A stretch of DNA of 64,000 nt from Candidatus Aenigmatarchaeota archaeon (GTDB lineage: Archaea; Aenigmatarchaeota; Aenigmatarchaeia; CG10238-14; SpSt-28), in NCBI GenBank assembly GCA_038733315.1, contig JAVYPJ010000001.1, forward strand, positions 318,832-382,831. The letters are read 5' to 3'. Numbering within the stretch: the stretch's first letter is position 1; each line of letters starts with the position of its first letter. Below, piece after piece: positions 28,932 through 59,135 of this stretch. Below the pieces are notes generated by a model. That model had not been told where the DNA came from. It worked only from the letters and a program-made list of their open reading frames with translations, and did not search any database. The translations under genes and the position numbers were made by a program.

Positions 28932-29080
28932 GCCGGGGTCGCCTAGCTGGCTATGGCGGCGGACTTGAGTGACAGATTGGCGTGAAACTGATTAGAAAAT
29001 GAAAAATGATGTGGGTGTCGAAATGAGAAAGAAATCCGCTGGGCTTTACGCCCGCGTGGGTTCAAATCCCACCCCCGGCG
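28932..29080 (+). tRNA. tRNA-Ser (anticodon TGA) with 64-nt intron (28970..29033)
   Basis: Type II tRNA. Anticodon stem GCGGA/UCCGC is split by an intron after position 37. Long variable arm UGGGCUUUACGCCCGC. Discriminator G73. Exons near-identical to the second Ser gene. Confidence 0.75.
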
Positions 29081-29606
29081 ATATATTTTGATTTAACTTA
29101 TATTTATTTTTGCAATATTCAAAAAATTCTTCAACTATTTTTTTAGTTATTTCTATGAAAATATTTTTTTCGAGCGCTGGTAATTCTAATACTATAGTAT
29201 TTTTGCAAAGAACATCATCTATTATGCAAACATAATAATTGTTAATTCTTTCAGCAATTTTCCTTCCATTTTCATCTATTAAGAATTGTTCTGTTGAAGC
29301 TTTTAGATTATAATTTTTTAATATATCTTCTATTTTCTTAGAAATAGAGATTAAATCTTCTTTTTTGGGATAAATTATTATCGAATATTCTTTATATTCT
29401 TTTTTCTTATCCAATACATTTTCATGAATTTCTAAAATTAAGGGATTTTCTTCATATAAATCTTTTATATATTTTATAAACTCGTTTCTTTTTTCAAAAT
29501 TTTTAAACTCTATTTCTTTATTTTTGAATTCATCAGAAATAATACTAAATGCCTCTTTTGGTAATTTTTCTCCTTTATGCTCAAAACAAACAACTATAAG
29601 CTTCAT
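29046..29606 (-). CDS. Hypothetical protein (3' end runs antisense into tRNA-Ser)
   Basis: 186-aa ORF. The last 12 codons (ISPGVGFEPTRA) are antisense to the tRNA-Ser T-arm. No earlier stop codon. Confidence 0.3.
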   Translation of the reverse strand: MKLIVVCFEHKGEKLPKEAFSIISDEFKNKEIEFKNFEKRNEFIKYIKDLYEENPLILEIHENVLDKKKEYKEYSIIIYPKKEDLISISKKIEDILKNYNLKASTEQFLIDENGRKIAERINNYYVCIIDDVLCKNTIVLELPALEKNIFIEITKKIVEEFFEYCKNKYKLNQNISPGVGFEPTRA

Positions 29607-50647: not shown

Positions 50648-50766
50648 TGCGGGGGGTGGGATTTGAACCCACGACGGCTCTACGCCATCGGGTTTCTTAT
50701 CATTTATTCAAAGCTTAAGATTTTATCTTAAGCCCGACGCCCTTGACCAGGCTAGGCGACCCCCGC
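50648..50766 (-). tRNA. tRNA-Leu (anticodon TAA) with ~33-nt intron
   Basis: Type II tRNA with long variable arm. The anticodon stem UCGGG/CCCGA is split after position 37. The intron carries CUUAAG, complementary to the exon's CUUAAG (BHB helix). Confidence 0.75.
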
Positions 50767-52262: not shown

Positions 52263-53414
52263 ATGATTGAAATTGCGTTAGTTGGAAAGCCAAATTCTGG
52301 AAAATCTACATTTTTTAAAGCAGCAACTCTAATGGATGTTAAAATTTCAAATATTCCTTTTACAACATTAAAACCAAACAGAGGAATTGCTTATGTATCA
52401 ACTCAATGTGTTTGTAAAGAATTTAATGTTAAATGCAATCCTCAAGATGGATTTTGCATAGATGGATTAAGATTTATTCCAATAATTCTTTGGGATGTCC
52501 CGGGATTAATTCCAGAGGCTCATAAGGGAAAAGGATTAGGAATAGAATTTTTATCGGCTATAAATCATGTAGATGGAATTGTTTATATTATAGATATTAG
52601 TGGGAAAACTGATTTAGAAGGAAAAGAAATAGAATTTTCAAGTCCAATAGAAGAGGTAAAATTTCTTTTAAATGAATTAATTCAATGGTATAAACAAAAT
52701 ATTCAAAAGCACATTCCGAAATATTATAAAAATGAAAAAGAATTAATAGATATTTTATCTCAAAAACTTAGCGGGTTAAAAATAAAAAGAGAGCAAATAG
52801 AAAAACATATTGATAAAATAAACGATTTGGAAAGTTTCTCTAAGGCATTACTATTCGAAAGCAAAAAAATGATTATTGCTGCGAATAAAATTGATGAGGA
52901 AAAATCTGAAAAAAATTTAAAAGAATTAAAAGAATTTTTAGAAAAAGAAAGTATTAATATAAAGATTGTTGCTTCTAGCGCTTTAAGTGAATTAATTTTA
53001 AGAACCTTAAGTCAAAAAGGGATAATAGAGTATAATTTCAAAAGTTTTGAAATTTTAAGGAAAAATGAATTAACTAGCGAACAAATAAATGCACTAGAAA
53101 GAATTAAAGAATTATTAGAAAAATATAATGGAAGTTTTATATTGAATGTTTTAAATGCTTTAGTTTTTGATGTTATGCAATATAAAGTTGTTTTTCCTGT
53201 TGAAAATGAAAATAAATTAAGCGATAAAAAAGGAAATATTTTACCAAATGCAATTTTATTGGAAAAGGATGCAAAAACAATAGATTTAGCTGAAAAAATT
53301 CATTCTGAAATAGCTAAAAATTTTTTATATGCAATTGAAATTAAAAGCAGAAAAAGAATAGGTAAAGATTATATTTTAAATCATAGAGATGTAATAAAGA
53401 TATATCACGCATAA
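52263..53414 (+). CDS. Obg-family GTPase (Ygr210/YchF-like) with C-terminal TGS-like domain
   Basis: G1 motif VGKPNSGKST, G2 motif TTLKPNRG, G3 motif DVPGL. 383 aa. Confidence 0.75.
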   Translation: MIEIALVGKPNSGKSTFFKAATLMDVKISNIPFTTLKPNRGIAYVSTQCVCKEFNVKCNPQDGFCIDGLRFIPIILWDVPGLIPEAHKGKGLGIEFLSAINHVDGIVYIIDISGKTDLEGKEIEFSSPIEEVKFLLNELIQWYKQNIQKHIPKYYKNEKELIDILSQKLSGLKIKREQIEKHIDKINDLESFSKALLFESKKMIIAANKIDEEKSEKNLKELKEFLEKESINIKIVASSALSELILRTLSQKGIIEYNFKSFEILRKNELTSEQINALERIKELLEKYNGSFILNVLNALVFDVMQYKVVFPVENENKLSDKKGNILPNAILLEKDAKTIDLAEKIHSEIAKNFLYAIEIKSRKRIGKDYILNHRDVIKIYHA

Positions 53415-53465
53415 TCAGAAGTACTCCTTTTCATCATTTTTCAGATGCGGCGGTATTCTTCATAA
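53412..53465 (-). ncRNA. Candidate box C/D sRNA (locus 1)
   Basis: Minus strand: AUGAAGA (C-like) - AUACCGCCGCAU - CUGA (D') - AAA - UGAUGA (C') - AAAGGAGUACUU - CUGA (D). The 12-nt guides and spacer length fit archaeal C/D sRNAs. Confidence 0.4.
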
Positions 53466-53498
53466 AAATTAAATTTTAACAAATTTCAAATTTATTAT

Positions 53499-53637
53499 GC
53501 CGGGGTCGCCTAGCGGATATGGCGCCGGCCTCGAGTTAAATGATAAGCTCTGGGGTAGCTGAAAATAATGATGATTTTGCTATAAGAGAAAGCCGGTGGG
53601 CTTTACGCCCGCGTGGGTTCAAATCCCACCCCCGGCG
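53499..53637 (+). tRNA. tRNA-Ser (anticodon CGA) with 55-nt intron (53536..53590)
   Basis: Acceptor, D-arm, variable arm and T-arm are the same as the tRNA-Ser(TGA) gene at 28932. Anticodon stem CCGGC/GCCGG split after position 37. Discriminator G73. Confidence 0.75.
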
Positions 53638-59038: not shown

Positions 59039-59135
59039 TGGGGCCGCTGGGATTCGAACCCAGGTCAGCGGGTTTCTTCACTTTTCTGAGCTCCATTTCT
59101 GGAGCCCGCCGTCCTGCCATCTAGACGACGGCCCC
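59039..59135 (-). tRNA. tRNA-Trp (anticodon CCA) with ~24-nt intron
   Basis: GGGGCCG acceptor. Anticodon stem GCGGG/CCCGC split after the CUCCAG loop. Intron UGGAGC is complementary to exon GCUCCA (BHB). Confidence 0.75.

Follow-up and report, generated by a model that had tools for sequence, protein, structure and literature searches.

Two tRNA-Ser paralogs are interrupted by long introns in which box C/D-like elements recur, raising the question of whether these introns are merely spliced out or also encode guide RNAs, and for which target. We addressed this question in the stretch of 64,000 nucleotides that contains both genes (hereafter the window) and in related loci. Judging from sequence comparisons, we consider that both introns are box C/D-type guide RNAs lodged in ordinary archaeal introns of the bulge-helix-bulge (BHB) type, with a probability of about 0.7.

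The tRNA-Ser genes and their splice motif

The window has a G+C content of 27% and contains 13 tRNA genes and one archaeal SRP RNA. Its AspRS and PheRS-alpha share 99% identity with proteins of Candidatus Aenigmatarchaeota metagenome-assembled genomes (MAGs), and the closest tRNA-Ser genes in the genome collection are from Aenigmatarchaeota hot-spring MAGs (including L081 and L086). Judging from these proteins, from the tRNA-Ser and from the base composition, the window belongs to the very AT-rich genome of a DPANN archaeon.

The tRNA-Ser(UGA) gene (28932-29080, +) consists of a 5' exon (28932-28969), a 64-nt intron (28970-29033) and a 3' exon (29034-29080). The tRNA-Ser(CGA) gene (53499-53637, +) is made of a 5' exon (53499-53535), a 55-nt intron (53536-53590) and a 3' exon (53591-53637). 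Both are recognised by the Rfam tRNA model (41.3 and 43.2 bits, respectively) and by ARAGORN with introns allowed, as Ser(tga) i(38,64) and Ser(cga) i(37,55). ARAGORN places both introns at the canonical 37/38 site, which bears out an earlier reading made from the sequence only, according to which both genes are split after position 37 by introns of 55-64 nt. The other intron-bearing tRNA genes found in the window by ARAGORN are those of Cys (26 nt), Leu (33 nt) and Trp (25 nt), and the full C/D layout is absent from these three introns.

Several observations can be made on the surroundings of these genes. Canonical 37/38 introns occur in 5 of the 13 tRNA genes of the window (177-59136), and all five finish in GAA|A. 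The Leu(UAA) intron (gene at 50648-50766, -) finishes in UUGA-AUAAA-UGAUAA-GAA|, a K-loop-like string. The 10-mer AAAUGAUAAG of this string recurs near the 5' end of the Ser(CGA) intron. A full C/D RNA would not fit into the 33 nt of the Leu intron. The tRNA-Trp intron is the classic host of C/D RNAs. The tRNA-Trp(CCA) gene of the window (59039-59135, -) has an intron of just 25 nt, free of C/D boxes, and the candidate guide-bearing introns of this lineage are hosted by tRNA-Ser, not by tRNA-Trp. Finally, an ORF of 186 aa (29046-29606, -) overlaps the 3' exon of tRNA-Ser(UGA) by 35 nt in antisense. Its final residues correspond to the T arm read antisense, and the actual stop or end of the gene may be elsewhere.

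Folding the pre-tRNAs, as the sequence-only reading had proposed, reveals a BHB splice motif in both Ser genes, with 3-nt bulges flanking a short helix. This motif accounts for the last five bases of both introns. C32-U33-N34 pairs with AAG in the UGA intron (C32-U33-U34) and with GAG in the CGA intron (C32-U33-C34), so that the intron strand co-varies with N34 between the paralogs. The 5' bulge is A36-G37|U, and the bulge at the 3' splice site is made of AA and A38. In the window, the helix consists of 3 bp and a G35.A mismatch; that of L122, an orthologous CGA intron, has 4 bp.

Box C/D-like architecture of the introns

The UGA intron has the order UGACAG, 12 nt, CUGA, 15 nt, UGAUGU. The C-like box G37|UGACAG (28969-28975, + strand, as are all elements of both introns) is followed by the D' guide AUUGGCGUGAAA with its core UUGGCGUGA (28976-28987), the D' box CUGA (28988-28991) and the 15-nt D'-C' loop, i.e., the loop of the K-loop (28992-29006). 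Then come the C' box UGAUGU (29007-29012), the D guide GGGUGUCGAAAU with its core GGUGUCGAA (29013-29024), a D-like box GAGA that begins exactly 12 nt past C' (29025-29028), and the 3' end AAGAA, a strand of the splice motif (29029-29033). Both spacers are thus exactly 12 nt long in the window; they measure 11-13 nt in the orthologs. AUGA at 29023-29026 was considered as the D box and rejected for its lack of conservation, in contrast to the conserved GAGA/AAGA register that overlaps it. The terminal boxes, G|UGAYAG and RAGA, depart from the consensus but contain the GA dinucleotides, and they border on the splice-site helix. The helix strand is immediately preceded by the GA of the D-like box, and the 5' bulge is directly followed by the UGA of the C-like box; stacking of a K-turn on the BHB is therefore conceivable in this intron.

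The CGA intron has the order UGAUAA, 12 nt, CUGA, 6 nt, UGAUGA. It starts with UUAAA, ahead of the C-like box UGAUAA (53541-53546), which in the orthologs L122 and L123 is the consensus G37|UGAUGA. The D' guide GCUCUGGGGUAG, with its conserved core CUGGGGUAG, spans 53547-53558. It is followed by a consensus K-loop motif composed of D' CUGA (53559-53562), the loop AAAUAA (53563-53568) and C' UGAUGA (53569-53574), and by a variable tail, UUUUGCUAUAAGAGAA, ending in GAGAA (53575-53590). The spacer between C and D' is 12 nt long in the window; L122/L123 have 15 and 10 nt. A D box is absent from the CGA intron of the window lineage; L122 and L123 carry AUGA near the 3' end.

The strings noticed in the sequence-only reading (a (U)GA element, about 11-12 nt, CUGA, a spacer and UGAUG) are present in both introns exactly as it described them, with a first spacer of 12 nt. 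It had also seen no terminal D box and had suggested half-mers. Both statements suit the CGA intron, which in the window lineage has one conserved guide and no D box, and neither suits the UGA intron, which has the D-like GAGA (29025-29028) and the layout of a double guide.

A textbook box C/D sRNA, recognised by its motifs and by Rfam, is encoded at 53415-53462 (-; it extends to about 53412-53467), 37 nt upstream of tRNA-Ser(CGA) and in divergent orientation. Its layout is UGAAGA, AUACCGCCGCAU, CUGA, AAAA, UGAUGA, AAAGGAGUACUU, CUGA, with 12-nt spacers, and it matches many archaeal C/D families of Rfam over their full length (E 0.007-0.2). Its presence implies that the organism uses C/D sRNAs with 12-nt spacers. 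The targets expected for its guides (AUGCGGCGGUAU and AAGUACUCCUUU) have no match in the tRNAs, the SRP RNA or 16S rRNA 869-1540. No fibrillarin, Nop5 or L7Ae turned up in the window or in related loci in a crude motif search, an outcome that is uninformative for a 64-kb piece and leaves the canonical sRNA as the sign of a C/D machinery.

We then assessed how rare the motifs are. CTGA-N3-16-TGATG occurs three times on the two strands of the 64-kb window, in the two Ser introns and in the canonical sRNA, and the exact CTGA..TGATGA motifs only twice, in the CGA intron and in the canonical sRNA. When the introns are shuffled, the motif pair arises in 2-5% of the sequences per intron if dinucleotides are kept and in 0.25% if only mononucleotides are. 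The background set came from a scan of genome contigs with a T-arm/acceptor pattern, which is generic and gave 119 loci across Archaea; the motif pair is absent from the 54 intron-bearing tRNA genes of other archaea (almost all tRNA-Ser). The scan of viral contigs gave no match. Nitrosocaldus and archaeon HR04 (L055 and L061), of unrelated thaumarchaeal lineages, have long introns in tRNA-Ser(CGA) as well; these begin with the C-box-like AUCUGGAUGAUGG and AUCUUGAUGAG and are devoid of the CUGA..UGAUGA pair.

The scores under snoPyro_CD, a generic model of archaeal C/D RNAs, are 18.6 bits for the canonical sRNA, 15.6 bits for the L122 intron over its full length and 11.6 bits for the CGA intron of the window, with no match to the UGA intron; all three are below the gathering threshold, as expected of models specific to their own guides. 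Against the Rfam C/D models, the CGA intron of the window is matched with E=8.3 and the UGA intron has no match at E<=10.

Orthologous introns and predicted rRNA targets

A metagenome scan anchored on the exons provided the CGA introns L120, L122 and L123 and the UGA intron L121. PheRS-alpha adjoins tRNA-Pro and tRNA-Ser(UGA) in the window, and its homologs (76-79% identity) provided the further UGA loci L128/L129, L130 and L131/L132. The resulting sets, from related Aenigmatarchaeota, cover five lineages for the UGA intron and three sequence types in two lineages for the CGA intron. Synteny based on AspRS identified relatives at 63-79% identity that lack a tRNA-Ser upstream. The sequence-only reading had named the absence of the motifs from orthologous introns as an observation that would speak against it; they are present in both sets of Ser orthologs. 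What is kept is the C-like box, a 12-nt guide, CUGA, a loop that is variable in length and sequence, and UGAUG, while the remainder drifts.

In the UGA family, the elements invariant in the five lineages are G|UGA-A-G, the guide core UUGGCGUGA, the UGA of D', and GAAAGAA|, which includes the splice-motif strand. The C-like box is G|UGAUAG in the orthologs (G|UGAAAG in L121). Both CUGA and the UGAUG of C' are kept in four of the five lineages; in L121, the D' and C' boxes are degenerate (AUGA and AUGAAA). The D'-C' loops measure 15, 15, 8, 5 and 3 nt in the five lineages, and their sequences are unrelated. The D-like box is AAGA, GAGA or UUGA in the orthologs, 11-13 nt past C', with an invariant GA at -7/-6 relative to the 3' splice site. 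Three lineages share the second guide (the window, L128/L129 and L130), whereas L121 has another in its place and L131 has lost it.

In the CGA family, CUGGGGUAG-CUGA-loop-UGAUGA is identical in the window, L120, L122 and L123 except for the loop (AAAUAA, AAAA or AGAA), and the boxes are invariant. The flanks of L122 and L123 cannot be aligned with those of the window, yet the guide 9-mer is identical. Between the window and the near-identical L120, all the differences in the CGA intron lie after C' (5 of 11 positions). In the same pair, the changes in the canonical sRNA are confined to the loop and the flanks, leaving its boxes and guides unchanged. Fixed boxes with one fixed guide, and a free loop or unused spacer, are thus a pattern common to the CGA intron and the canonical sRNA.

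The guides were compared with 16S fragments of relatives, namely L133 (1-511, Rfam archaeal SSU) and L136 (E. coli positions 869-1540); the 16S-bearing relatives have 62% identity in PheRS-alpha and are not this genome. All 16S positions follow the E. coli numbering. A search with nhmmer using the 16S and 23S of E. coli found no further rRNA in any fetched locus, and E. coli rRNA taken as a stand-in target gave matches at chance level only. Near E. coli position 1090, about 40 nt (AAUCGCUAAGCCGCAUUAAAUAUUUGCGGCUUAGCGAGACU) are inserted in the 16S of L133 (about 40-85 of L133). The insertion forms a perfect hairpin, is absent in L136, and may be a mini-intron or an expansion segment.

The D' core of the UGA intron, UUGGCGUGA, is perfectly antisense over 9 nt to UCACGCCAA, at 1406-1414 in the top of h44 (L133 and L136), and the second core, GGUGUCGAA, is perfectly antisense over 9 nt to UUCGACACC, at 965-973 in the loop of h31 (L136). 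Both duplexes occupy positions 3-11 of the guide, counted from the D' or the D-like box, and with 9 bp they are rather short as guide duplexes go. The D' duplex of L121 is longer (12 bp, 1405-1416), and the different second guide of this lineage is again antisense to 16S, at 909-918 (10 bp, positions 2-11). Such 9-mer matches number 117 per 128,000 positions of the window, from which about 0.05 are expected per intron, and shuffled guides match the 16S in 0.3% of trials. Two in-register matches in one intron are therefore very unlikely to be due to chance.

The UGA intron is thus best read as a putative double guide for 16S rRNA. The nucleotide modified by a C/D sRNP is the one opposite the fifth nucleotide upstream of D or D' (the N+5 rule). 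Applied to duplexes at positions 3-11, this rule predicts 2'-O-methylation of A1408 by the D' guide and of C967 by the second guide. Helix h31 and the top of h44 are close together, at the P site and the decoding site. Double guides directed to neighbouring 16S strands are a known pattern, for which chaperone roles have been discussed (PMC7994747). The CGA intron would be a single guide. Its expected target, CUACCCCAG, has no counterpart in the tRNAs, the SRP RNA or 16S 869-1540, and is most likely in the 23S or in the 5' part of the 16S.

Alternative readings, mechanism and significance

The sequence-only reading had placed these introns beside that of tRNA-Trp, as C/D-like RNAs that might guide the modification of their own exons. 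The first part of this idea is backed by the architecture, by the conservation and, for the UGA intron, by the antisense matches to 16S; the self-targeting is not. A cis-acting guide that 2'-O-methylates the exons of its own tRNA-Ser (positions 32-39) would have a precedent in the euryarchaeal pre-tRNA-Trp, with Cm34 and Um39 (PMC4090602). However, the best pairings of the guides with their own pre-tRNA or mature tRNA, with the other 11 tRNAs and with the SRP RNA are no better than those of shuffled guides, which removes tRNA-Trp-like self-targeting, and we give this possibility almost no credence. The sole partial match, between the D' guide of the UGA intron and the variable arm (ACGCC), was rejected because the two do not co-vary: the arms of L121, L128 and L131 differ and the guide is unchanged. 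It is also quite improbable that these are ordinary BHB introns, spliced out without function, in which C/D-like strings arose by chance in A/U/G-rich sequence. The frequency of the motif pair in dinucleotide shuffles leaves room for this, all the more as the pattern was defined post hoc, the terminal boxes are non-consensus and the UGA intron lacks an Rfam C/D match. Yet chance does not account for boxes and adjacent 9-mers that are invariant amid unalignable flanks and drifting loops and tails, for two 9-mers in guide position, in the same register and in one intron, that are antisense to 16S, or for the absence of the motif from the 54 intron-bearing tRNA genes (almost all tRNA-Ser) of other archaea.

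Two further explanations accept that the elements are or were real. The introns may be decaying relics of C/D sRNAs once inserted in them and now non-functional in the window lineage, where the CGA intron has UGAUAA for UGAUGA and no D box (L122 and L123 are near-consensus), and the UGA intron has UGACAG for the UGAUAG of its relatives; one guide is lost in L131. In a relic, drift would be expected in the guides and the K-loop too, and their perfect conservation in the window lineage, next to positions that have diverged, makes decay very improbable. Alternatively, the K-loop could be an L7Ae-binding or structural module that helps an AU-rich intron to fold for splicing in a thermophile, or the RNA an rRNA chaperone, with no methyl transfer. 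This fits the contrast between the consensus C'/D' and the non-consensus C/D, as the terminal boxes are perhaps too degenerate to recruit Nop5-fibrillarin, and it fits a D-like GA that abuts the BHB helix; the chaperone roles of double guides on neighbouring 16S strands (PMC7994747) would apply here as well. A purely structural role leaves unexplained the conservation of the guide 9-mers and of the exact N+5 register despite indels in the loop. Moreover, spacers of 12 nt are characteristic of archaeal sRNPs that are competent for methylation. We regard a role without methylation as unlikely.

If the introns are guide RNAs, their production and action may be envisaged as follows. The splicing endonuclease would cut the pre-tRNA at the BHB, and the excised intron of 52-64 nt would probably be circularised, as archaeal tRNA introns are after excision, and then bound by L7Ae, Nop5 and fibrillarin. 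The RNP of the UGA intron would pair with the top of h44 (1406-1414) and the loop of h31 (965-973) and would 2'-O-methylate A1408 and C967, or at least hold both strands together during assembly; that of the CGA intron would work as a single-guide RNP. In the UGA intron, the terminal K-turn would be non-consensus and, as the D-like GA adjoins the central helix of the BHB, L7Ae binding and splicing would share one structure. The supply of guides for ribosome modification would be tied to the transcription of tRNA-Ser. A bolder version, which remains tentative at odds well below even, is that the tRNA-Ser introns of this clade are the only source of guides for A1408 and C967, with a K-turn merged with the splice motif and a circle that acts as a two-K-loop RNP. 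In such a merged K-turn, the 3-nt bulge would be the bulge of the 5' splice site and the stem would be the central helix of the BHB, so that the splicing endonuclease and L7Ae would read the same structure. With the excised intron acting as a C/D RNP once it is ligated into a circle, the mechanism of tRNA splicing would be linked to that of ribosome maturation.

These candidate guide RNAs share features with several known systems. Like the pre-tRNA-Trp of Euryarchaeota (Haloferax volcanii; sR50 of Pyrococcus), they would place a C/D guide in a long, BHB-flanked intron at the 37/38 site; the pre-tRNA-Trp intron is about 65-105 nt long, and its excised form can act in trans and is circularised. 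Here, in contrast, the host is tRNA-Ser, in two isoacceptors, and the Trp intron of the window is short and boxless. The guides do not match the exons of their host, those of the UGA intron match 16S, and the terminal boxes are non-consensus. [quoted passage not shown] It too is from a DPANN archaeon, has a host other than tRNA-Trp, is long among short introns, has a degenerate box C and was proposed to be a guide (PMC3491384). The differences are the host tRNA and the phylum, the two paralogs with different guides, the selective conservation in orthologs and the explicit 16S targets predicted here. The N. equitans intron was shown to be stable as RNA, whereas the tRNA-Ser introns were analysed here as sequences.

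The resemblance to free-standing archaeal C/D sRNAs, such as the one at 53415-53462 (-), extends to the size (50-65 nt), the C-12-D'-loop-C'-12-D layout, the consensus K-loop, rRNA-antisense guides that obey the N+5 rule, and two guides for neighbouring rRNA sites. [quoted passage not shown] In intron-encoded snoRNAs of eukaryotes and dicistronic tRNA-snoRNA genes of plants, the guide is likewise a by-product of the processing of a host transcript, and guide supply is coupled to host-gene expression, as it would be here. Whereas those guides come from spliceosomal introns or from dicistrons processed by RNase Z, the present host is a BHB tRNA intron, protein-free and cut by EndA. According to a review of 2014, the tRNA-Trp intron is unique in that it encodes a functional unit (PMC4090602). 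Our literature search found nothing on C/D-bearing introns in tRNA-Ser or in Aenigmatarchaeota. A C/D guide borne by a tRNA intron was thus so far known from tRNA-Trp and suggested for the tRNA-Met of Nanoarchaeum, and the putative tRNA-Ser variant is new.

If confirmed, these results would mean that BHB tRNA introns can host rRNA guides, akin to eukaryotic snoRNAs in the introns of their host genes, and that two paralogous tRNA genes have retained this arrangement across several lineages of a DPANN phylum with reduced genomes. They would also indicate that a guide RNP may function with strongly non-consensus terminal boxes placed beside a splice site. The predicted guides of the UGA intron would be aimed at the decoding centre of the 16S rRNA rather than at a tRNA, and they single out two candidate modification sites in the P-site/decoding region, A1408 and C967. 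With such guides, the retention of long tRNA introns would have a concrete explanation in terms of selection.
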